Shown here one piece after another: positions 3,105 to 47,797 of a stretch of 64,000 bases of DNA (its first letter is position 1; each line of letters starts with the position of its first letter). Where the stretch lies: the NCBI RefSeq assembly GCF_056712565.1, contig NZ_CM160072.1; one strand, 5' to 3'. The position numbers and the translations under genes are program-made. The notes beneath the pieces are model-generated. The model worked only from the letters and a program-made list of their open reading frames with translations, was not told the DNA's origin and searched no databases.

Positions 3105-3297
3105 CTTGCTGGTTTGTGAGTGAAAGTCACCTGCCTTAATATCTCAAAACTCATCTTCGGGTGATGTTTGAGATATTTGCTCTTTAAAAATCTGGATCAA
3201 GCTGAAAATTGAAACACTGAACAACGAAAGTTGTTCGTGAGTCTCTCAAATTTTCGCAACACGATGATGGATCGCAAGAAACATCTTCGGGTTGTGA

Positions 3298-9563: not shown

Positions 9564-9915
9564 AAGCCCTCCTTGAGTCACCATTATGTGCATAAGATAT
9601 CGCTGCTGTAGCCCGCTAATTCGTGAATTTTAGTGGCTGATTCCTGTTTATTTGTGCAAGTGAAGTTGAGTTGTTCTGGCGGTGGAATGATGCTCGCAAA
9701 AATGCAGCGTGCAAAGGATGAACTACGAGGAAGGGAACAACATTCATACTGAAATTGAATTTTTTTCACTCACTATTTTCTTTTTAAAAAACAACAATTT
9801 CTCTTGAAATTATTAAAGACATCATAAAAATCGGCCAAAAAATATCTTGTGCTATTCGCAAAATCTATGGTAACTCTTTAGGCATTCCTTCGAACAAGAT
9901 GCAAGAAAAGACAAA

Positions 9916-10014
9916 ATGACAGCCCTTCTACGAGTGATTAGCCTGGTCGTGATTAGCGTGGTGGTGATTATTATCCCACCGTGCGGGGCTGCACTTGGAC
10001 GAGGAAAGGCTTAG
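9916..10014 (+). CDS. ilvL: ilvGMEDA leader peptide (Ile/Val/Leu-rich attenuation peptide)
   Basis: atgacagcccttctacgagtgattagcctggtcgtgattagcgtggtggtgattattatcccaccgtgcggggctgcacttggacgaggaaaggcttag = MTALLRVISLVVISVVVIIIPPCGAALGRGKA, 32 aa. Confidence 0.85.
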   Translation: MTALLRVISLVVISVVVIIIPPCGAALGRGKA

Positions 10015-10035
10015 AGATCAAGCCTTAACGAACTA

Positions 10036-10070
10036 AGACCCCCGCACCGAAAGGTCCGGGGGTTTTTTTT
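10036..10070 (+). terminator. ilv attenuator (rho-independent terminator)
   Basis: agacccccgcaccgaaaggtccgggggttttttttg: GC-rich hairpin plus T8 run directly after ilvL. Confidence 0.85.
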
Positions 10071-10100
10071 GACCTTAAAAACATAACTGAGGAGCAGACA

Positions 10101-10151
10101 ATGAATAACAGCACAAAATTCTGTTTCTCAAGATTCAGGACGGGGAACTAA
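10101..10151 (+). CDS. ilvX: small protein IlvX (16 aa)
   Basis: atgaataacagcacaaaattctgtttctcaagattcaggacggggaactaa = [16 protein letters not shown] between attenuator and ilvG. Confidence 0.5.
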
Positions 10152-10153
10152 CT

Positions 10154-11800
10154 ATGAATGGCGCACAGTGGGTGGTACATGCGTTGCGGGCACAGGGTGT
10201 GAACACCGTTTTCGGTTATCCGGGTGGCGCAATTATGCCGGTTTACGATGCATTGTATGACGGTGGCGTGGAACACTTGCTGTGCCGACACGAGCAAGGT
10301 GCAGCAATGGCGGCTATCGGTTATGCCCGTGCTACCGGCAAAACTGGCGTTTGCATCGCCACGTCTGGTCCAGGTGCAACCAACCTGATAACCGGGCTTG
10401 CGGACGCGCTGTTAGATTCCATCCCCGTTGTTGCTATCACCGGTCAGGTATCCGCACCGTTTATCGGCACTGACGCATTTCAGGAGGTGGATATTCTGGG
10501 GTTGTCGTTAGCCTGCACCAAGCACAGTTTCCTGGTGCAATCACTGGAAGAGTTACCGCGTATCATGGCCGAAGCGTTTGACGTCGCCAGCTCTGGTCGT
10601 CCTGGTCCGGTTTTGGTCGATATTCCAAAAGATATCCAGTTAGCCAGCGGCGATCTGGAACCGTGGTTCACCACTGTTGAAAACGAAGTGACTTTCTCAC
10701 ATGCCGAAGTCGAGCAAGCGCGTCAGATGCTGGCAAAAGCGCAAAAACCGATGCTGTACGTTGGCGGTGGCGTGGGCATGGCGCAGGCAGTTTCGGCTTT
10801 GCGTGAATTTCTCGCTGCCACAAAAATGCCTGCCACCTGTACGTTGAAAGGGCTGGGCGCAGTAGAAGCAGATTATCCGTACTATCTGGGCATGCTGGGG
10901 ATGCACGGCACCAAAGCGGCGAACTTCGCAGTGCAGGAGTGCGATCTACTGATCGCCGTGGGCGCACGTTTTGATGACCGGGTGACCGGCAAACTGAACA
11001 CCTTCGCACCACACGCCAGCGTTATCCATATGGATATCGATCCGGCAGAAATGAACAAGCTGCGTCAGGCACATGTGGCATTACAGGGTGATTTAAATGC
11101 TCTGTTACCAGCATTACAGCAGCCGTTAAATATCGATGACTGGCAGCAACACTGCGCGCAACTGCGTGATGAACATGCCTGGCGTTACGACCATCCTGGT
11201 GACGCTATCTACGCGCCGTTGTTGTTAAAACAACTGTCGGATCGTAAATCTGCGGATTGCATCGTGACCACAGATGTGGGGCAGCACCAGATGTGGGCTG
11301 CCCAGCACATCGTCCACACTCGCCCGGAAAACTTCATCACCTCCAGCGGCTTAGGCACCATGGGTTTCGGTTTACCGGCGGCGGTTGGCGCACAAGTCGC
11401 GCGACCGAACGATACTGTCGTCTGTATCTCCGGTGACGGCTCTTTCATGATGAATGTGCAAGAACTGGGCACCGTAAAACGCAAGCAGTTACCGTTGAAA
11501 ATCGTCTTACTCGATAACCAACGGTTAGGGATGGTTCGACAATGGCAGCAACTGTTTTTCCAGGAACGATACAGCGAAACTACCCTTACCGATAACCCCG
11601 ATTTCCTCATGTTAGCCAGCGCCTTCGGCATCCCTGGCCAACACATCACCCATAAAGACCAGGTTGAAGCGGCACTCGACACCATGCTGAACAGTGATGG
11701 GCCATACCTGCTTCATGTCTCAATCGACGAACTTGAGAACGTCTGGCCGCTGGTGCCGCCTGGTGCCAGTAATTCTGAAATGTTGGAGAAATTATCATGA
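10154..11800 (+). CDS. ilvG: acetolactate synthase II large subunit, intact full-length
   Basis: 548-aa uninterrupted ORF with TPP-binding motif (GDGSFMMN); in K-12 this gene carries a frameshift. Confidence 0.93.
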
Positions 11801-12060
11801 TGCAACATCAGGTCAATGTATCGGCTCGCTTCAATCCGGAAACCTTAGAACGTGTTTTACGCGTGGTGCGTCATCGTGGTTTCCACGTCTGCTCAATGAA
11901 TATGGCCGCCGCCAGCGATGCACAAAATATAAATATCGAATTGACCGTTGCCAGCCCACGGTCGGTCGACTTACTGTTTAGTCAGTTAAATAAACTGGTG
12001 GACGTCGCACACGTTGCTATCTGCCAGAGCACAACCACATCACAACAAATCCGCGCCTGA
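11797..12060 (+). CDS. ilvM: acetolactate synthase II small subunit
   Basis: 87-aa [32 protein letters not shown]...; 4-bp overlap with ilvG stop. Confidence 0.9.
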
Positions 12061-12079
12061 GCGCAAAAGGAATATAAAA

Positions 12080-13009
12080 ATGACCACGAAGAAAGCTGAT
12101 TACATTTGGTTCAATGGGGAGATGGTTCGCTGGGAAGACGCGAAGGTGCATGTGATGTCGCACGCGCTGCACTATGGCACCTCGGTTTTTGAAGGCATCC
12201 GTTGCTACGACTCGCACAAAGGACCGGTTGTATTCCGCCATCGTGAGCATATGCAGCGTCTGCATGACTCCGCCAAAATCTATCGTTTCCCGGTTTCGCA
12301 GAGCATTGATGAGCTGATGGAAGCTTGTCGCGACGTGATCCGCAAAAACAATCTCACCAGCGCCTATATCCGTCCGCTGATTTTCGTCGGTGATGTTGGC
12401 ATGGGCGTAAACCCGCCAGCGGGATACTCAACCGATGTGATTATCGCCGCTTTCCCGTGGGGGGCGTATCTGGGCGCAGAAGCGCTGGAGCAGGGGATCG
12501 ATGCGATGGTTTCCTCCTGGAACCGTGCTGCACCAAACACCATCCCAACCGCAGCGAAAGCTGGAGGTAACTACCTCTCTTCCCTGTTGGTGGGTAGCGA
12601 AGCGCGCCGCCACGGTTATCAGGAAGGTATCGCATTGGATGTGAATGGTTATATCTCTGAAGGCGCAGGAGAAAACCTGTTTGAAGTGAAAGACGGTGTG
12701 CTGTTCACTCCACCGTTCACCTCCTCCGCGCTGCCGGGTATTACCCGTGATGCCATCATCAAACTGGCGAAAGAGCTGGGAATTGAAGTGCATGAACAGG
12801 TGCTGTCGCGCGAATCCCTGTACCTGGCGGATGAAGTCTTTATGTCCGGTACGGCGGCAGAAATCACGCCAGTGCGCAGTGTAGATGGTATTCAGGTTGG
12901 TGAAGGCCGTTGCGGCCCGGTTACCAAACGCATTCAGCAAGCCTTCTTCGGCCTCTTCACTGGCGAGACCGAAGATAAATGGGGCTGGTTAGATCAAGTT
13001 AATCAATAA
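12080..13009 (+). CDS. ilvE: branched-chain amino acid aminotransferase
   Basis: Track ORF 12014..13009; known N-terminus MTTKKADYIWFNGEMV begins 22 codons in (309 aa). Confidence 0.93.
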   Translation: MTTKKADYIWFNGEMVRWEDAKVHVMSHALHYGTSVFEGIRCYDSHKGPVVFRHREHMQRLHDSAKIYRFPVSQSIDELMEACRDVIRKNNLTSAYIRPLIFVGDVGMGVNPPAGYSTDVIIAAFPWGAYLGAEALEQGIDAMVSSWNRAAPNTIPTAAKAGGNYLSSLLVGSEARRHGYQEGIALDVNGYISEGAGENLFEVKDGVLFTPPFTSSALPGITRDAIIKLAKELGIEVHEQVLSRESLYLADEVFMSGTAAEITPVRSVDGIQVGEGRCGPVTKRIQQAFFGLFTGETEDKWGWLDQVNQ

Positions 13010-13073
13010 ATACAAAAAATGGGACGGCACGCACCGTCCCATTTACGAGACAGACACTGGGAGTAAATAAAGT

Positions 13074-14924
13074 ATGCCTAAGTACCGTTCCGCCACCACC
13101 ACTCATGGTCGTAATATGGCGGGTGCTCGTGCGCTGTGGCGCGCCACCGGAATGACCGACGCCGATTTCGGTAAGCCGATTATCGCGGTTGTGAACTCGT
13201 TCACCCAATTTGTACCGGGTCACGTCCATCTACGCGATCTCGGTAAACTGGTTGCCGAACAAATTGAAGCGGCTGGCGGCGTTGCCAAAGAGTTCAACAC
13301 CATTGCGGTGGATGATGGGATCGCTATGGGCCACGGGGGCATGCTTTATTCACTGCCATCTCGCGAACTGATCGCTGATTCCGTTGAATATATGGTCAAC
13401 GCCCACTGCGCCGACGCCATGGTCTGCATCTCTAACTGCGACAAAATCACCCCGGGGATGCTGATGGCTTCCCTGCGCCTGAATATTCCGGTGATCTTTG
13501 TTTCCGGCGGCCCGATGGAGGCCGGGAAAACCAAACTGTCCGATCAGATCATTAAGCTCGATCTGGTTGATGCGATGATCCAGGGCGCAGACCCGAAAGT
13601 TTCTGACTCCCAGAGCGATCAGGTTGAACGATCCGCCTGCCCAACCTGCGGTTCCTGCTCCGGGATGTTTACTGCTAACTCAATGAACTGCCTGACCGAA
13701 GCGCTGGGCCTGTCGCAGCCGGGCAACGGCTCGCTGCTGGCAACCCACGCTGATCGCAAGCAACTGTTCCTCAATGCTGGTAAACGCATTGTTGAATTGA
13801 CCAAACGTTACTACGAACAGGATGATGAAAGCGCACTGCCGCGTAACATCGCCAGTAAGGCGGCGTTTGAAAACGCCATGACGCTGGATATCGCGATGGG
13901 CGGCTCTACCAACACCGTTCTCCACCTGCTGGCGGCGGCGCAGGAAGCGGAAATCGACTTCACCATGAGTGATATCGATAAGCTCTCCCGCAAAGTACCG
14001 CAGCTGTGTAAAGTTGCGCCGAGCACCCAAAAATACCATATGGAAGATGTTCACCGTGCTGGTGGTGTTATCGGTATTCTCGGCGAGCTGGATCGTGCGG
14101 GGTTACTGAACCGTGATGTGAAAAATGTACTTGGCCTGACGTTGCCGCAAACGCTGGAACAATACGACATCATCGTGACCCAGGATGATGCGGTAAAAAA
14201 TATGTTCCGCGCTGGCCCGGCGGGCATTCGTACTACACAGGCATTCTCGCAGGATTGCCGCTGGGATACGCTGGACGACGATCGCTCCAATGGCTGTATC
14301 CGCTCGCTGGAACACGCCTACAGCAAAGACGGCGGCCTGGCGGTGCTCTACGGTAATTTCGCAGAAAACGGCTGCATCGTTAAAACCGCAGGCGTCGATG
14401 ACAGCATCCTCAAATTCACTGGCCCGGCGAAAGTCTACGAAAGCCAGGACGACGCGGTAGAAGCGATTCTCGGCGGTAAAGTTGTCGCCGGAGATGTGGT
14501 AGTAATTCGCTATGAAGGCCCGAAAGGCGGTCCGGGGATGCAGGAAATGCTCTACCCAACCAGTTTCCTGAAATCAATGGGTCTCGGTAAAGCCTGTGCG
14601 CTGATCACCGACGGTCGTTTCTCTGGCGGCACCTCTGGTCTTTCCATCGGCCACGTCTCACCGGAAGCGGCAAGTGGCGGCAGCATTGGCCTGATTGAAG
14701 ATGGTGACCTGATCGCTATCGACATTCCGAACCGTGGCATTCAGTTACAGGTAAGCGATGCCGAACTGGCGGCGCGTCGTGAAGCGCAGGAAGCTCGGGG
14801 TGACAAAGCCTGGACGCCGAAAAACCGTGAACGTCAGGTTTCCTTTGCGCTGCGTGCCTACGCCAGCCTGGCAACCAGCGCCGACAAAGGCGCGGTGCGC
14901 GATAAATCGAAACTGGGGGGTTAA
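13074..14924 (+). CDS. ilvD: dihydroxy-acid dehydratase
   Basis: 616-aa [29 protein letters not shown]...; Fe-S cysteine motifs (CPTCGSCSG). Confidence 0.95.
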
Positions 14925-14926
14925 TG

Positions 14927-16471
14927 ATGGCAGACTCACAACCCCTGTCCGGTGCCCCTGAAGGTGCCGAATATTTAAGAGCGGTGCTGCGCGCGCCGGT
15001 CTACGAAGCGGCGCAGGTCACGCCGCTACAAAAAATGGAAAAACTCTCGTCGCGTCTCGATAACGTGATTCTGGTGAAACGCGAAGACCGTCAGCCAGTT
15101 CATAGCTTTAAGCTGCGCGGCGCATACGCCATGATGGCGGGCCTGACGGAAGAACAGAAAGCGCACGGCGTGATCACCGCTTCTGCGGGTAACCACGCGC
15201 AGGGCGTCGCGTTTTCTTCCGCACGGTTAGGCGTGAAGGCACTGATCGTCATGCCAACCGCCACCGCCGATATCAAAGTCGACGCGGTGCGCGGCTTCGG
15301 CGGCGAAGTGCTTCTTCACGGCGCGAACTTTGATGAAGCAAAAGCGAAAGCGATCGAACTGTCACAGCAGCAGGGCTTCACCTGGGTGCCGCCGTTCGAC
15401 CATCCGATGGTGATCGCCGGGCAAGGCACGCTGGCGCTGGAACTGCTCCAGCAGGACGCCCATCTCGACCGCGTATTTGTGCCAGTCGGCGGCGGCGGTC
15501 TGGCGGCGGGCGTGGCGGTACTGATCAAACAACTGATGCCGCAAATCAAAGTGATTGCCGTGGAAGCGGAAGACTCCGCCTGCCTGAAAGCGGCGCTGGA
15601 TGCAGGTCATCCGGTTGAGCTGCCACGCGTGGGGCTGTTTGCCGAAGGTGTTGCGGTGAAACGCATCGGCGACGAAACCTTCCGTTTATGCCAGGAGTAT
15701 CTCGACGACATCATCACCGTCGATAGCGATGCCATATGTGCGGCGATGAAAGACCTGTTCGAAGATGTGCGCGCGGTAGCGGAACCCTCTGGCGCGCTGG
15801 CACTGGCGGGAATGAAAAAATATATCGCCCAGCACAACATTCGCGGTGAGCGGCTGGCGCATATTCTTTCTGGTGCTAACGTGAACTTTCACGGCCTGCG
15901 CTACGTCTCGGAACGTTGCGAACTGGGCGAACAGCGTGAAGCGTTGCTGGCGGTAACCATCCCGGAAGAGAAGGGCAGCTTCCTGAAGTTCTGCCAGCTG
16001 CTTGGCGGGCGCTCGGTCACCGAGTTCAACTACCGTTTTGCCGATGCCAAAAACGCCTGCATTTTTGTTGGTGTGCGCCTGAGCCGTGGTCTCGAAGAGC
16101 GCAAAGAAATTTTGCAGATGCTCAACGATGGCGGCTACAGCGTAGTGGATCTCTCCGACGACGAAATGGCGAAGCTGCATGTGCGCTATATGGTCGGCGG
16201 GCGTCCGTCGCATCCGTTGCAGGAACGCCTCTACAGCTTCGAATTCCCGGAATCGCCGGGCGCGCTGTTGCGCTTCCTCAACACGCTGGGTACGCACTGG
16301 AACATTTCTTTGTTCCACTATCGCAGCCATGGCACCGACTACGGGCGCGTACTGGCGGCGTTCGAACTTGGCGACCATGAACCGGATTTCGAAACCCGGT
16401 TGAATGAGTTGGGTTACGATTGCCACGACGAAACCAATAACCCGGCGTTCAGGTTCTTTTTGGCGGGTTAA
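14927..16471 (+). CDS. ilvA: threonine dehydratase (biosynthetic), PLP enzyme with C-terminal ACT regulatory domains
   Basis: Track ORF 14924..16471 (515 aa, MMADSQ...); likely start at second Met. Confidence 0.93.
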   Translation: MADSQPLSGAPEGAEYLRAVLRAPVYEAAQVTPLQKMEKLSSRLDNVILVKREDRQPVHSFKLRGAYAMMAGLTEEQKAHGVITASAGNHAQGVAFSSARLGVKALIVMPTATADIKVDAVRGFGGEVLLHGANFDEAKAKAIELSQQQGFTWVPPFDHPMVIAGQGTLALELLQQDAHLDRVFVPVGGGGLAAGVAVLIKQLMPQIKVIAVEAEDSACLKAALDAGHPVELPRVGLFAEGVAVKRIGDETFRLCQEYLDDIITVDSDAICAAMKDLFEDVRAVAEPSGALALAGMKKYIAQHNIRGERLAHILSGANVNFHGLRYVSERCELGEQREALLAVTIPEEKGSFLKFCQLLGGRSVTEFNYRFADAKNACIFVGVRLSRGLEERKEILQMLNDGGYSVVDLSDDEMAKLHVRYMVGGRPSHPLQERLYSFEFPESPGALLRFLNTLGTHWNISLFHYRSHGTDYGRVLAAFELGDHEPDFETRLNELGYDCHDETNNPAFRFFLAG

Positions 16472-17361
16472 TGGTTCGGCAAAATCTTCCAGAACGCCTC
16501 AATCAGCGGCTCATGCAGCCGCTTTTTCTGCGCACAGACGCCCAGTTCAAAAGGTGTTTTCTCATCACTGCGCTCTAAAATCATCACGCGGTTACGCACT
16601 GGTTCCGGGCTGTTTTCCAGCACCACTTCCGGCAACAAGGCCACGCCACAGCCGAGCGCTACCATCGACACCATCGCTTCATGCCCGCCGACCGTGGCGT
16701 AAATCATCGGGTTGCTGATTTTGTTGCGTCGAAACCACAGTTCAATGCGCCGGCGCACCGGTCCCTGATCGGCCATGATAAACGGCACTGTAGACCAGTC
16801 CGGCTTCTCTGCCGAAACTTGGTTACGCACCGGGCAGGGTAGCGCGGGGGCAATCAGCACTACTGCCAGATTCTCCAGCATCGAAAACGCCACTGCGCCG
16901 GGCAGAGTCTCCGGTTTCCCGGCAATCGCCAGATCCGCTTCGCCAGTGACTACCTTTTCCATCGCATCTGCCGCATCACCAGTCGTGAGTTTAATCTCCA
17001 CCGACGGGTGTTCCGCGCGGAAGCGATCGAGAATCGGCGGCAGATGGCTGTAGGCAGCGGTCACCGAGCAGAAGATATGTAATTCGCCAGAGAGCGACGG
17101 TCCTTGCTGATCGATGGTGTGGCGCAGCTGTTGATACTGCAACAGCGTTTGCTGGGCGAAAACGCGCAGTTCTTCGCCTGCTTCGGTTAGCGTTACCGTG
17201 CGGTTATCGCGCACAAACAGCGGCTGACCGAGATCGTCTTCCAGGCGCTGAATCTGCCGAGAGAGCGTGGACGGGCTAACGTGCATTGCCCGCGCGCTGC
17301 GGCCAAAATGGCGGCTTTCCGCCAGATGCAGGAAGGTTTTCAGATCGCGTAAATCCAATGG
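16468..17361 (-). CDS. ilvY: LysR-type regulator IlvY
   Basis: Track ORF 16468..17442; LysR HTH ([38 protein letters not shown]); probable TTG start at the L of LDLRDL giving ~297 aa. Confidence 0.85.
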
Positions 17362-17507
17362 CGCAGCCCTTAATGTTGACGTTGCAGAAATTGCAATGTG
17401 ACGTTGTGAATATATCAATTTCCGCAATAAATTTCCTGTCATATAGTGAATTCAATCTCGCAAACGCGAACCGAACAATAAGAAGCACAACATCACGAGG
17501 AATCACC

Positions 17508-18983
17508 ATGGCTAACTACTTCAATACACTGAATCTGCGCCAGCAGTTGGCACAGCTGGGCAAATGTCGCTTTATGGGGCGCGATGAATTCGCCGATGGC
17601 GCGAGCTACCTTCAGGGTAAAAAAGTAGTCATCGTCGGCTGTGGTGCACAGGGTCTGAACCAGGGCCTGAACATGCGTGATTCTGGTCTCGATATCTCCT
17701 ACGCTCTGCGTAAAGAAGCGATTGCCGAGAAGCGCGCATCCTGGCGTAAAGCGACCGAAAACGGCTTCAAAGTTGGCACTTACGAAGAACTGATCCCGCA
17801 GGCGGATCTGGTGGTTAACCTGACGCCAGACAAGCAGCACTCTGACGTAGTGCGTTCCGTTCAGCCGCTGATGAAAGACGGCGCGGCGCTGGGCTACTCT
17901 CATGGTTTCAATATCGTAGAAGTGGGTGAGCAGATCCGTAAAGACATCACCGTCGTAATGGTTGCGCCGAAATGCCCTGGCACCGAAGTACGTGAAGAGT
18001 ACAAACGTGGATTCGGCGTACCGACGCTGATTGCCGTTCACCCGGAAAACGATCCGAAAGGCGAAGGCATGGCGATCGCTAAAGCATGGGCGGCTGCAAC
18101 CGGCGGTCACCGTGCGGGCGTTCTGGAATCCTCTTTCGTTGCGGAAGTGAAATCTGACCTGATGGGCGAGCAAACCATCCTGTGCGGTATGTTGCAAGCT
18201 GGTTCTCTGCTGTGCTTCGACAAGCTGGTGGAAGAAGGCACCGATCCGGCATACGCAGAAAAACTGATTCAGTTCGGTTGGGAAACCATCACCGAAGCGC
18301 TGAAACAGGGCGGCATCACCCTGATGATGGACCGTCTTTCTAACCCGGCGAAACTGCGTGCTTACGCGCTCTCTGAGCAATTGAAAGAGATCATGGCGCC
18401 GCTGTTCCAGAAACATATGGACGACATCATCTCCGGCGAATTCTCCTCCGGCATGATGGCTGACTGGGCCAACGACGATAAGAAACTGCTGACCTGGCGT
18501 GAAGAGACTGGCAAAACCGCATTCGAAACCGCGCCGCAGTATGAAGGCAAAATCGGCGAACAGGAGTACTTCGATAAAGGCGTACTGATGATCGCGATGG
18601 TAAAAGCAGGCGTTGAGTTGGCGTTTGAAACCATGGTTGATTCCGGCATCATCGAAGAATCTGCTTACTATGAATCACTGCACGAACTGCCGCTGATTGC
18701 CAACACCATCGCCCGTAAGCGTCTGTACGAAATGAACGTGGTTATCTCCGATACTGCCGAGTACGGTAACTATCTGTTCTCTTACGCTTGTGTGCCGCTG
18801 CTGAAACCGTTTATGGCAGAGCTGCAACCGGGCGACCTGGGTAAAGCTATTCCGGAAGGTGCGGTAGATAACGCGCAACTGCGTGATGTAAATGAAGCGA
18901 TTCGCAGCCATGCGATTGAGCAGGTAGGTAAGAAACTGCGCGGCTATATGACGGATATGAAACGTATTGCTGTTGCGGGTTAA
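17508..18983 (+). CDS. ilvC: ketol-acid reductoisomerase (NADP+)
   Basis: Track ORF 17286..18983 is an over-extension; true N-terminus [22 protein letters not shown] (491 aa). Confidence 0.95.
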
Positions 18984-18999
18984 TAGCGATTCAGAGTTC

Positions 19000-19026
19000 A
19001 AGGCCTTCTCCCGGAGAAGGCCTTGC
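19000..19026. terminator. bidirectional terminator between ilvC and ppiC
   Basis: Perfect palindrome aaggccttctcccggagaaggcctt between convergent genes. Confidence 0.7.
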
Positions 19027-19028
19027 TG

Positions 19029-19358
<330 letters not shown>

Positions 19359-19396
19359 TTATTTTCCCCTCCCGACTTTCATTGAGCGATTTTCCT

Positions 19397-21418
19397 ATGC
19401 GTCTAAACCCCGGCCAACAACAAGCTGTCGAATTCGTTACCGGCCCCTGCCTGGTGCTGGCGGGTGCGGGTTCCGGTAAGACGCGAGTGATCACCAATAA
19501 AATCGCTCACCTGATTCGCGGTTGCGGTTATCAGGCGCGGCATATTGCGGCAGTCACCTTTACCAACAAAGCGGCGCGCGAGATGAAAGAGCGTGTGGCG
19601 CAGACGCTGGGGCGCAAAGAGGCGCGAGGGTTGATGATCTCCACCTTCCACACGCTTGGGCTGGATATTATCAAGCGCGAATATGCGGCGTTGGGGATGA
19701 AGTCTAACTTTTCGCTGTTTGACGATACCGATCAGCTTGCTTTGCTTAAAGAGTTGACCGAGGGGCTGATTGAAGATGACAAAGTTCTCCTGCAACAGCT
19801 AATTTCGACCATCTCCAACTGGAAGAACGATCTCAAAACACCGGCGCAGGCGGCGGCAGAGGCAAAGGGCGAGCGGGACCGTATTTTTGCCCATTGTTAT
19901 GGGCTGTATGATGCACACCTGAAAGCCTGTAACGTTCTCGACTTCGATGATCTGATTTTATTGCCAACGTTGCTGCTGCAACGCAATGAAGAAGTCCGCG
20001 AGCGCTGGCAGAACAAAATTCGCTACCTGCTGGTGGATGAGTATCAGGACACCAACACCAGCCAGTATGAACTGGTGAAACTGCTGGTGGGCAGCCGCGC
20101 GCGCTTTACCGTGGTGGGTGACGATGACCAGTCGATCTACTCCTGGCGCGGCGCACGTCCGCAGAATCTGGTGCTGCTGAGCCAGGATTTTCCGGCGCTG
20201 AAGGTGATTAAGCTTGAGCAGAACTACCGCTCTTCCGGACGTATTTTGAAAGCGGCGAACATCCTGATCGCCAATAACCCGCACGTCTTTGAAAAGCGTC
20301 TGTTCTCCGAACTGGGTTACGGCACAGAGCTAAAAGTTTTAAGCGCGAATAACGAGGAACATGAAGCCGAGCGCGTCACCGGCGAGCTGATCGCCCATCA
20401 CTTCGTCAATAAAACGCAGTACAAAGATTACGCCATTCTTTATCGCGGCAACCATCAGTCGCGGGTATTTGAAAAATTCCTGATGCAAAACCGCATCCCG
20501 TACAAAATATCTGGCGGTACGTCGTTTTTCTCTCGTCCTGAAATCAAGGACTTGCTGGCTTATCTGCGCGTGCTGACTAACCCGGACGATGACAGCGCAT
20601 TTCTGCGTATCGTTAACACGCCGAAGCGAGAGATTGGCCCGGCGACGCTGAAAAAGCTAGGTGAATGGGCGATGACGCGCAATAAAAGCATGTTTACCGC
20701 CAGCTTTGATATGGGCCTGAGTCAGACCCTGAGCGGACGTGGTTATGAAGCATTGACCCGCTTCACTCACTGGTTGGCGGAAATCCAGCGTCTGGCGGAG
20801 CGGGAGCCGATTGCCGCGGTGCGTGATCTGATCCACGGCATGGATTATGAATCCTGGCTGTACGAAACATCGCCCAGCCCGAAAGCCGCCGAAATGCGCA
20901 TGAAGAACGTCAACCAACTGTTTAGCTGGATGACGGAGATGCTCGAAGGCAGCGAACTGGATGAGCCGATGACGCTCACCCAGGTGGTGACGCGCTTTAC
21001 TTTGCGCGACATGATGGAGCGCGGCGAGAGCGAGGAAGAGCTGGATCAGGTGCAACTGATGACTCTGCACGCGTCGAAAGGGCTGGAGTTTCCCTATGTC
21101 TACATGGTTGGTATGGAAGAAGGGTTTTTGCCCCACCAGAGCAGCATCGATGAAGACAATATTGATGAGGAGCGGCGGCTGGCCTATGTCGGCATTACCC
21201 GCGCCCAGAAGGAATTGACCTTTACGCTGTGTAAAGAACGCCGTCAGTACGGCGAACTGGTGCGCCCGGAGCCGAGCCGCTTCCTGCTGGAGCTGCCGCA
21301 GGATGATTTGATTTGGGAACAGGAGCGCAAAGTGGTCAGCGCCGAAGAACGGATGCAGAAAGGGCAAAGCCATCTGGCGAATCTGAAAGCGATGATGGCG
21401 GCAAAACGAGGGAAATAA
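19397..21418 (+). CDS. rep: ATP-dependent DNA helicase Rep (SF1 UvrD/Rep family)
   Basis: Track ORF 19382..21418; known start [31 protein letters not shown] (673 aa); Walker A GSGKTR. Confidence 0.94.
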
Positions 21419-24350: not shown

Positions 24351-24480
24351 AGTGTGGTAGAATATCAGCTTACTATTGCTTTACGAAAGCGTATCCGGTG
24401 AAATAAAGTCAACCTTTAGTTGGTTAATGTTACACCAACAACGAAACCAACACGCCAGGCTTATTCCTGTGGAGTTATAT

Positions 24481-24810
24481 ATGAGCGATAAAATTATTCA
24501 CCTGACTGACGACAGTTTTGACACGGATGTACTCAAAGCGGACGGGGCGATCCTCGTCGATTTCTGGGCAGAGTGGTGCGGTCCGTGCAAAATGATCGCC
24601 CCGATTCTGGATGAAATCGCTGACGAATATCAGGGCAAACTGACCGTTGCAAAACTGAACATCGATCAAAACCCTGGCACTGCGCCGAAATATGGCATCC
24701 GTGGTATCCCGACTCTGCTGCTGTTCAAAAACGGTGAAGTGGCGGCAACCAAAGTGGGCGCACTGTCTAAAGGTCAGTTGAAAGAGTTCCTCGACGCTAA
24801 CCTGGCGTAA
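24481..24810 (+). CDS. trxA: thioredoxin 1
   Basis: Track ORF 24376..24810; known protein [38 protein letters not shown] (109 aa) with WCGPC active site. Confidence 0.95.
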
Positions 24811-28852: not shown

Positions 28853-29983
28853 GTGAAAGTACTGACTGTATTTGGTACGCGCCCGGAAGCCATCAAGATG
28901 GCACCGTTGGTGCATGCGTTGGCAAAAGATCCTTTTTTTGAGGCTAAAGTTTGCGTCACTGCGCAGCATCGGGAGATGCTCGATCAGGTGCTGAAACTCT
29001 TTTCCATTGTACCTGACTACGATCTCAACATAATGCAGCCAGGACAGGGCCTTACAGAGATAACCTGTCGGATTCTGGAAGGGCTAAAACCTATTCTTGC
29101 CGAGTTCAAACCAGACGTCGTGCTGGTTCACGGCGATACTACTACAACGCTGGCAACCAGCCTGGCGGCGTTTTATCAGCGTATTCCAGTTGGTCACGTT
29201 GAGGCAGGTCTGCGCACGGGCGATCTCTATTCGCCGTGGCCGGAAGAGGCTAACCGTACATTGACCGGGCATCTGGCGATGTATCACTTCTCTCCAACCG
29301 AAACTTCCCGGCAAAACTTGCTGCGTGAAAACGTTGCTGACAGCCGAATCTTCATTACCGGTAATACTGTCATCGATGCACTGTTATGGGTGCGTGACCA
29401 GGTGATGAGCAGCGATACGCTGCGTTCAGAACTGGCGGCAAATTACCCGTTTATCGACCCCGATAAAAAGATGATTCTGGTGACCGGTCACAGGCGTGAG
29501 AGCTTCGGTCGTGGCTTTGAAGAAATCTGCCAGGCGCTGGCAGACATCGCCACCACGCACCAGGACATCCAGATTGTCTATCCGGTGCATCTCAACCCGA
29601 ACGTCAGAGAGCCGGTCAATCGCATTCTGGGGCATGTGAAAAATGTCATTCTGATCGATCCCCAGGAGTATTTACCGTTTGTCTGGCTGATGAACCACGC
29701 TTGGCTGATTTTGACCGACTCAGGCGGCATTCAGGAAGAAGCGCCTTCGCTGGGGAAACCGGTGCTGGTGATGCGCGATACCACTGAGCGTCCGGAAGCG
29801 GTGACAGCGGGGACGGTGCGTCTGGTCGGCACGGATAAGCAGCGAATTGTCGAGGAAGTGACGCGTCTTTTAAAAGACGAAAACGAATATCAAGCTATGA
29901 GCCGCGCCCATAACCCGTATGGTGATGGTCAGGCATGCTCTCGCATTCTGGAAGCGTTAAAAAATAATCGGATATCACTATGA
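28853..29983 (+). CDS. wecB: UDP-N-acetylglucosamine 2-epimerase
   Basis: Track ORF 28811..29983; known start (GTG) at [20 protein letters not shown] (376 aa). Confidence 0.93.
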
Positions 29984-31242
29984 GTTTTGCGACCATTTCT
30001 GTTATCGGACTGGGTTACATCGGGCTGCCTACAGCAGCTGCGTTTGCCTCAAGGCAAAAACAGGTGATTGGTGTCGATATCAACCAACACGCGGTTGATA
30101 CCATCAATCGTGGCGAAATCCATATCGTCGAGCCTGATTTGGCGAGCGTAGTAAAAACTGCCGTAGAAGGCGGTTTTTTACGAGCGAGCACGACGCCAGT
30201 TGAAGCGGATGCCTGGTTGATTGCTGTACCCACGCCGTTTAAAGGCGATCATGAGCCAGATATGACCTACGTTGAATCGGCTGCTCGCTCCATCGCGCCA
30301 GTGCTGAAAAAAGGCGCGTTGGTGATCCTTGAATCCACCTCGCCGGTGGGGTCAACCGAGAAGATGGCAGAATGGTTAGCAGAGATGCGTCCAGATCTCA
30401 CTTTCCCACAGCAGGTGGGCGAGTTGGCGGACGTCAACATTGCTTACTGCCCGGAACGCGTATTACCGGGCCAGGTTATGGTCGAGCTGATTAAAAACGA
30501 TCGCGTGATTGGTGGTATGACGCCGGTTTGTTCGGCCCGCGCCAGCGAACTGTACAAAATTTTCCTCGAAGGTGAGTGTGTCGTCACTAACTCGCGGACG
30601 GCAGAAATGTGTAAGCTCACCGAAAACAGCTTCCGCGATGTGAATATCGCTTTTGCTAATGAATTGTCGCTGATTTGTGCCGATCAGGGGATTAACGTCT
30701 GGGAACTGATTCGCCTGGCGAATCGTCACCCTCGCGTCAATATTCTTCAGCCAGGCCCTGGCGTGGGCGGTCACTGCATCGCTGTTGATCCGTGGTTTAT
30801 CGTGGCACAGAACCCCCAGCAGGCGCGGCTTATCCGTACCGCGCGCGAAGTGAACGATCACAAACCGTTCTGGGTTATCGATCAGGTGAAAGCGGCGGTG
30901 GCTGATTGTCTGGCTGCTACCGATAAACGCGTCAGTGAACTGAAAATCGCCTGCTTTGGTCTGGCGTTTAAACCGAATATTGATGACCTGCGCGAAAGTC
31001 CGGCAATGGAAATCGCTGAACTGATCGCCCAGTGGCACAGCGGCGAAACGCTGGTTGTTGAGCCTAACATCCACGAGTTGCCGAAGAAACTGACCGGGCT
31101 TTGTACTCTGGCGCAGCTTGACGAGGCGCTGGCAACGGCAGATGTGCTGGTGATGCTGGTCGATCATAGTCAGTTCAAAGTTATCAATGGCGACAACGTC
31201 CATCAGCAGTATGTCGTCGATGCCAAAGGAGTCTGGCGCTGA
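29980..31242 (+). CDS. wecC: UDP-N-acetyl-D-mannosamine dehydrogenase
   Basis: 420-aa ORF; N-terminal Rossmann [14 protein letters not shown]; 4-bp overlap with wecB. Confidence 0.93.
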
Positions 31243-45150: not shown

Positions 45151-45357
45151 GTAGATGCTCATTCCATCTCTTATGTTCGCCTTAGTGCCTCATAAACTCC
45201 GGAATGACGCAGAGCCGTTTACGGTGCTTATCGTCCACTGACAGATGTCGCTTATGCCTCATCAGACACCATGGACACAACGTTGAGTGAAGCACCCACT
45301 TGTTGTCATACAGACCTGTTTTAACGCCTGCTCCGTAATAAGAGCAGGCGTTTTTTT
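45151..45357 (+). ncRNA. glmZ: GlmZ small regulatory RNA
   Basis: gtagatgctcattccatctcttatgttcgccttagtgcctcataaactccggaatgacgc...ctgctccgtaataagagcaggcgttttttt matches the ~207-nt GlmZ sequence incl. intrinsic terminator; track ORF 45262..45612(-) over it is spurious. Confidence 0.85.
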
Positions 45358-46603: not shown

Positions 46604-47797
46604 TTATTCTCCTTGCGGCGCGGCTGCCGGAGCATCAGCTTGCGGTGCAGGTGCAGGTGCAGGTGCAGGTTTAGCTTCCGTTGTCCCTGCTGCCGGTTGT
46701 GCCAGCAGGTTACGCACGCGGGTCTGCATCAATTTTTCCAGCATCGCCTGGCTTTGCAGGGTTTCCGGAAGATCCATCGAGATATTTTGCTGGCTTAACT
46801 GGTCCACCTCGTCGAGGAACGCTTTGGTGGTGGCATCATCAGTATCGTAGTAAGCACGTACCCAGGTGGAGACGTTCTCCAGCGCCTGGCGATAAGTCTC
46901 TTCCTGGTGACGCGGTACAGCTTGTGCTGCGACCAGCAGGCGAGAGCGAATATTTTCGCGCAGATAGATATCCTGATTTGGCGCTAACAGCGGTACGGCG
47001 GTGTCATCACGACGGCGAATCGTAATGAAGTTGTCCATAAAGTTCTGCCAGCTTTTTTGCAGATTGATACGCCATTCGCTGATGGAACTGGAAAGCTCTT
47101 CACCGTCGGAATCCATCGGCGAACCATCGCTGTCATTATCGGCCAGACGCAGATTATCTACCTGATTTGAAAGCTGATTAAGCTTAAGGATGATACCGTC
47201 ATAATCCACCTGCGATACCGCAGAAAGGCTGGCGATATCATCGGTAATTGCCCGGCGAACGGTAATCAGACTCGGGTCATTCATATCCGCCAGGCTGGCG
47301 TCTGCACTTTTCAGCAACGCTGCAGCGGTCGTGACGTCCTGATCGCTCCACAGCTTCCGTCCGGCGAGTTTCACCAGAAAATCGGCCTGGGCCAGCAGCC
47401 AGGTTTTAGCATCGCTGCCGGAAATGGTGGCGACCTTTTGTTGGACTTCATCCAGCTGTTTTGCCAGCGTTTCTTGCTGACGATTCGCCTGCTCAAGCTG
47501 TACAGCTTGTTGCTTGATAATGCCTTCCAGCTCGGCTTTTTGGCTCTCCTGGGCTTTTTGCAGTGCCGTAAGTTGGTTAGCCAGGGCATCGCTGGTGGCA
47601 GTCTGATTGACGGCCTGTTGTTTACCCCAGCCATACAAACCGACGCCCGCCGCCAGAGCAATAGCGATAGCCACCGCGCTGAGAATCAATGCGGTATTGT
47701 TCTTACTCTTTTTTTCTGTTGCGACAGGTTGTGACGTGGTGTCCACGGCCTCCCTGGTCTCTTCAACCACGGCGGAGGTTTTTTCTTGTTCCGTCAT
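46604..47797 (-). CDS. hemX: HemX (membrane-anchored coiled-coil protein)
   Basis: 397-aa [21 protein letters not shown]...; C-terminal Pro-Ala repeat ([22 protein letters not shown]). Confidence 0.9.

Follow-up and report, generated by a model that had tools for sequence, protein, structure and literature searches.

The window, by which we mean the whole stretch of 64,000 nucleotides that was analysed, contains a complete ilvLXGMEDA operon in which the ilvL leader and its attenuator are followed by ilvX, ilvG, ilvM, ilvE, ilvD and ilvA, an order that follows the annotation of the corresponding record (Table 1). The ilvG gene is present in the ORF list as a single ATG-started reading frame of 548 aa with no internal stops, and the chance that 548 sense codons remain open is approximately (61/64)^548, or roughly 4e-12. 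An earlier sequence-only reading of this DNA had claimed an intact 548-aa ilvG, and both the single uninterrupted frame in the ORF list and the full-length family match to NF006524 described below bear this out. Table 1 also includes an antisense ORF inside ilvG; we have taken the antisense ORFs within the gene to be fortuitous frames on the strand facing a long coding sequence.

Table 1. Features of the ilv operon, of the IlvG protein and of other Rfam-annotated loci in the window (window coordinates, or IlvG residues where stated).
Feature	Position	Strand	Description	Source
ilvL	9916..10014	+	32-aa leader peptide (MTALLRVISLVVISVVVIIIPPCGAALGRGKA), rich in Ile/Leu/Val codons	ORF and NCBIfam
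Attenuator	10035..10070	+	intrinsic terminator: hairpin, then eight consecutive U	RNA fold
ilvX	10101..10151	+	16-aa small ORF just 5' of ilvG	sequence and annotation
ilvG, intact	10154..11800	+	catalytic (large) subunit of acetolactate/acetohydroxyacid synthase II	ORF list
PF02776 (N-terminal Pyr)	IlvG residues 1-116			Pfam
PF00205 (central FAD-binding)	IlvG residues 186-321			Pfam
PF02775 (C-terminal PP)	IlvG residues 374-522			Pfam
ATAT across codons 326-327	11130..11133	+	only one AT in K-12; frameshift site	
Antisense ORF, 158 aa	11209..11685	-	inside ilvG	ORF list
ilvM	11797..12060	+	87 aa, synthase II small subunit (ACT domain)	ORF list, NCBIfam, Pfam
ilvE	12080..13009	+		matching ATCC 11775 annotation, converted to window coordinates
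ilvD	13074..14924	+		matching ATCC 11775 annotation, converted to window coordinates
ilvA	14927..16471	+		ATCC 11775 annotation, converted; reading frame checked
StyR-44 (16S-23S spacer)	3182-3290	+		Rfam
trxA 5'-UTR thermometer	24411-24510	+		Rfam
GlmZ sRNA	45151-45357	+		Rfam

The predicted IlvG protein scores 1072.9 bits (cut-off 738) with NF006524, the NCBIfam equivalog for the 'acetolactate synthase 2 catalytic subunit', and the match extends from end to end, residues 1-547 being paired with positions 1-547 of the 548-position model. The second-best family is TIGR00118, the general biosynthetic large subunit, at 721.6 bits. The three Pfam domains of ThDP-dependent enzymes are found in the canonical order, all scoring far above their gathering scores. 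The protein retains every one of the residues E47, F109, Q110, K159, M250, H251, R276, V375, D428, N455, M460 and W464, which the mutagenesis literature marks as functionally important in this E. coli enzyme; they cover the catalytic glutamate, the ThDP-Mg motif (GDG...N, with D428 in GDG) and the substrate pocket. Conserved Phe, Val and Trp residues of the substrate pocket have been described (PMC5727371). The PDB yielded no experimental structure of E. coli synthase II; the best match was 6LPI, the large subunit of isozyme I.

The ATG of ilvM begins at 11797 and the TGA of ilvG ends at 11800, so that the two genes share the four bases ATGA (in the context tcATGAtg); a 4 bp overlap had been proposed in the sequence-only reading, and it is seen both in the ORF coordinates and in the sequence. 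IlvM matches NCBIfam NF008362 (synthase 2 small subunit; 133.9 bits, cut-off 68) as well as Pfam ACT_5, the same protein (WP_000983255.1) is common to the K-12, BL21, HS and CFT073 annotations, and at the DNA level ilvM is identical in the window and CFT073. The ilvL product matches NCBIfam NF007744 'ilv operon leader peptide' (81.9 bits, cut-off 59) and is likewise common (WP_001311244.1) to the annotations of K-12, ATCC 11775, BL21, HS and CFT073. A simple terminator scan reported no ilv attenuator on the + strand; folding showed a strong hairpin and U run (positions 10030-10072; -21.6 kcal/mol, z = -4.0, with none of 200 shuffles as good), and one mismatch in the stem probably explains why the simple scan missed it. 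The attenuator is enclosed by a match to the Rfam 5'-UTR family RF02744 at 9845-10134. A 'peptide IlvX' (WP_001387183.1) is annotated at the corresponding place in ATCC 11775 and K-12, and ilvX is invariant in an alignment of the window, K-12, BL21 and HS.

The leader and attenuator are identical among the window, K-12, BL21 and HS, and between the leader and the ilvG start there is a single SNP (10088) relative to K-12 and BL21, with one more in HS; several bases differ from K-12, BL21 and HS in the promoter-proximal region at about 9800-9870. The full 560 bases 5' of ilvG are identical to those of CFT073. At the other end of the operon, codon 231 of ilvA differs from ATCC 11775 at position 15619 (G here and T there), giving E231 in place of the D231 found in ATCC 11775, K-12 and CFT073, a conservative change in threonine deaminase. 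Immediately upstream of the operon and divergent from it, yifB is annotated as frameshifted in CFT073 (CFT073 sequence 29487-31008) and as intact in ATCC 11775, and there is a matching open frame in the window.

The ilvG of K-12 MG1655 is annotated in RefSeq as 'frameshifted', with a length of 1,645 bases. Its alignment with the window copy shows 76 substitutions and one 2-base gap at 11130-11131, with 95.3% DNA identity overall. The sequence-only reading held that ilvG is split by a frameshift in K-12 and is uninterrupted here, and this single gap at the site accounts for the difference. Codons 325-328 read TTA AAT ATC GAT (L N I D) in the window and TTA AAT CAA TGA (L N Q stop) in K-12: one AT is lost from the ATAT, and K-12 ilvG consequently terminates at a TGA at codon 328. 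The window frame remains open across this site, reading L325 N326 I327 D328 D329 W330 and onward to residue 548, with its first stop at 11798-11800. Comparison of K-12 with HS, a phylogroup-A commensal with an intact ilvG, reveals the same 2-base gap. We infer that the K-12 state is derived, because the NF006524 model has 548 positions and the BL21, HS, CFT073 and ATCC 11775 proteins are all 548 aa long. The K-12 frameshift and its consequences have reportedly been known since 1981, from work attributed to Lawther et al. Among the four sequences compared (window, BL21, HS and K-12), S342 and H494 occur only in K-12 once its frame is restored; both lie 3' of the frameshift, in the untranslated part, and may fit either relaxed selection or lineage polymorphism.

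The distribution of the K-12 lesion was surveyed in 5,426 complete E. coli genomes, 5,425 of which contain ilvG (at least 80% of the gene in 5,423). The survey addressed the K-12 junction only, as distinct from other ilvG lesions, and used a 60-mer centred on the junction with matches counted at 99% identity or above. By this measure the exact K-12 junction is present in 340 of the 5,426 genomes; among the matches listed, carriers include ER1709, a K-12 strain, XL10-Gold, MC1061 and TP10-2 (labelled as from Homo sapiens), and almost all of those listed are K-12 laboratory derivatives. A further 4,468 genomes match the 60-mer at lower identity, and every listed row of these pairs 61 or 62 record bases with 59 or 60 query bases, as expected if the two extra bases are present. 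The remaining 618 genomes have no match to this short query and were left uncounted, nearby SNPs being a possible reason. In a spread sample of 40 records, 36 have a 1,647-base ilvG match, three match over 1,645 bases (one K-12 MG1655 and two labelled as laboratory strains), and one has a deletion. An intact ilvG is thus the norm for the species and K-12 is the exception, and for this reason, with the junction in only 340 of 5,426 genomes, intactness is a weak strain marker.

The assignment to a non-K-12 background, made in the sequence-only reading from the intact gene, is nonetheless correct, and is far better supported by identity across the whole window than by the integrity of ilvG. The window matches ATCC 11775 (= DSM 30083, the type strain) at 99.984% over 64,000 columns by blastn (reverse complement of approximately 4783530-4847529), with three SNPs, a 1-base deletion and a 6-base insertion as the only differences. 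Identity to K-12 is about 97.3% in most aligned blocks and 93.4% across ilvY-ilvC, and there are three structural differences. The ilvG stretch itself is 100% identical over 1,647 bases to ATCC 11775 (WP_001012594.1), and also to strain N68. Within the window, the segment from ilvG to rep (10154-21418) is 94.3-96.6% identical to K-12 except for ilvM (99.2%), and flanking genes such as rho, trxA, rhlB, wecA and maoP are at about 99% or more; the locally elevated divergence of the ilvG-rep segment could stem from an old recombination or from a distinct clonal frame.

Two of the structural differences from K-12 are additional segments in the window. At 52914-55464 there are about 2.55 kb between cyaY and lptM that are not in K-12, which has only a 179-base DKNYY remnant at this place; in ATCC 11775 the segment contains a gene for a hypothetical protein (WP_001014285.1) and a DKNYY-family gene with an internal stop. 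Similarly, about 1 kb between yigE and uvrD (61450-62461) is not in K-12, and in ATCC 11775 encodes an S-adenosyl-L-methionine hydroxide adenosyltransferase family protein. Between ppiC and rep (19326-19381) it is K-12 that has about 830 additional bases, including a frameshifted PemK/MazF-family toxin pseudogene, and the window, ATCC 11775 and CFT073 are without them.

There are two small indels relative to ATCC 11775. A 1-base deletion at about 142-143, relative to both ATCC 11775 and K-12, falls in the 5' part of the PGAP-annotated mdtD (- strand, start near 206) adjoining yieP; it changes AAMAFFMQALDAT and shifts the frame at about codon 22. The gene runs off the window after its first ~205 bases, and the deletion could be either a genuine knockout peculiar to this strain or a mistake of the assembly. 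In hemX (- strand), a short tandem run of hexamers at the 3' end contains an additional GGTGCA unit (46644-46649). The number of these repeats appears to vary between strains, since the hemX coding sequence is 1,182 bases in K-12 and 1,188 in ATCC 11775. The window also contains a complete rRNA operon and eight tRNAs, and all of the Rfam features are those expected for this chromosomal region.

We consider that this locus is the wild-type ilvLXGMEDA operon, with the ancestral uninterrupted ilvG and hence a valine-insensitive synthase II, and that the strain is a phylogroup-B2-like E. coli all but identical to ATCC 11775; we put the probability of this at about 95%. The integrity of the gene, its family membership, the anatomy of the operon, the exact site of the K-12 lesion and the near-identity to a genetically validated allele were observed directly; enzyme activity, valine resistance and a lack of polarity would be expected for this strain. 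A functional valine-resistant pathway is strongly predicted, because the only differences from CFT073 across the 560 upstream bases, ilvG and ilvM are 4 nt and one amino acid, all in ilvG.

IlvG (548 aa; ThDP-, FAD- and Mg-dependent) and IlvM (87 aa, with its ACT domain) would together form acetohydroxyacid synthase II, with the overlap of their genes presumably providing translational coupling. The enzyme is predicted to condense pyruvate with either pyruvate or 2-ketobutyrate and not to be feedback-inhibited by valine, such that synthase II would stay active, and isoleucine synthesis would continue, under valine levels that switch off isozymes I and III. Expression would be set by the ilvL leader and attenuator in response to the supply of Ile, Leu and Val, and, with no premature stop in ilvG, a polar drop in ilvEDA expression of the K-12 type should be absent.

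That an intact ilvGM confers valine-resistant synthesis is well established (PMC3446290, PMC7924626, PMC8605374, PMC5727371, bioRxiv 10.1101/2025.10.31.685768). Synthase II is insensitive to valine even at saturating levels, and isozyme I is fully inhibited (PMC5727371). The K-12 frameshift explains the failure of K-12 to grow on valine dipeptides, on which B strains and Nissle 1917 do grow (PMC3446290, PMC7924626), and in the B strain, with its intact ilvG, expression of ilvGMEDA is higher than in K-12 (PMC3446290). MG1655 mutants in which the frame is restored grow at 0.1-1 mg/ml valine (PMC8605374), and the same source, citing Parekh and Hatfield 1997, attributes to the K-12 lesion a polar effect on the ilv genes that follow. 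When CFT073 is in human urine, synthase II is its sole active acetolactate synthase; deletion of ilvG stops growth in urine, and repair of the MG1655 frameshift restores it (bioRxiv 10.1101/2025.10.31.685768).

The substitution at residue 366 is the point at which an intact frame might nevertheless encode an impaired or inactive enzyme. Serine at this position replaces a proline shared by CFT073, BL21, HS and K-12 and is the sole difference from the validated CFT073 protein, and ten residues differ from each of the B-strain and HS proteins. However, all of the catalytic and cofactor residues listed above are present, the full-length NF006524 score is far above its cut-off, and 61 synonymous versus 10 non-synonymous codon differences from BL21 are as expected under purifying selection. 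Moreover, residue 366 lies in a stretch that is not conserved in the alignment of isozymes I and II, and the exact 60-mer around the Ser366 codon is found in 246 complete genomes from varied hosts, natural isolates among them (avian and type-strain isolates included), so that loss of function through lineage-specific substitutions is very unlikely. We regard as equally improbable a subtler effect, in which the S366 form of IlvG would alter the kinetics or regulation of branched-chain synthesis relative to other B2 E. coli, perhaps reinforced by the window-specific D231E change in IlvA; no observation here points to such an effect.

A recombinant or chimeric ilvG, rather than a plain vertical orthologue, has some apparent basis in the 95.3% identity to K-12 and in the values of 94-96% from ilvG through ilvC to rep, which are below the window average of about 97.3%, when the flanking rho, trxA and rhlB are at about 99% or more. 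Yet the lower identity covers the entire ilv cluster (94.3-96.6% for ilvE, ilvD, ilvA, ilvY, ilvC and rep), a 200-base profile shows no sharp breakpoint inside ilvG, and the gene is collinear with and equal in length to those of four other strains, lying only 4 nt from that of the B2 strain CFT073. The outcome that the sequence-only reading named as refuting it, an ORF shortened or chimeric relative to functional IlvG, did not appear, the protein having the same length as those of BL21, HS and CFT073 at distances of 10, 10 and 1 residues, and we rejected a chimeric gene, for which the odds are slimmer still than for an impaired one. The pattern across the ilv region reflects lineage divergence or old recombination, and the integrity of ilvG is unaffected. 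The least credible account, to which we attach almost no weight, is that sequencing or assembly errors make the gene look intact in an otherwise K-12-like sequence: small indels relative to ATCC 11775 do exist (1 base at ~142 and 6 bases at 46644-46649), but ilvG is 100% identical in the independent assemblies of ATCC 11775 and N68, thousands of genomes share the two extra bases, and the window is about 2.7% from K-12 in addition to its three structural differences.

A wild-type operon with an uninterrupted ilvG thus remains the preferred reading, and intactness is simply how this textbook gene looks in ordinary wild-type strains, with the identical annotation already in RefSeq. Valine or valine-containing peptides should not starve the strain for isoleucine, growth should be possible in fluids that are rich in valine and poor in isoleucine, urine for example, and metabolic models derived from K-12 would need synthase II switched on. 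The finding has little importance beyond correct annotation.

Comparison with characterized systems places the locus as follows. IlvB, the large subunit of synthase I (PDB 6LPI), has the same fold family and domain order and aligns with IlvG over residues 2-544 (E = 4e-163); it is the valine-inhibited isozyme (PMC5727371) and a paralogue of IlvG, not an orthologue, and the two are separated by NCBIfam. K-12 MG1655 has the same locus, leader, attenuator, ilvX and IlvM protein as the window, and its IlvG, when restored to frame, differs at 11 residues. In E. coli B (BL21/REL606) IlvG is intact at 548 aa within the same operon layout and with the same IlvM; relative to the window, BL21 ilvG has 71 differing codons, 61 of them synonymous and 10 giving amino acid differences. 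The 548-aa HS protein also has 10 amino acid differences (67 synonymous codon changes versus 10). CFT073 IlvG (WP_001012593.1) has the same length and is only 4 nt and one residue apart, with P366 there and S366 here, and the ATCC 11775 gene, annotated as 'acetolactate synthase 2 catalytic subunit', has no differences from the window copy at all.
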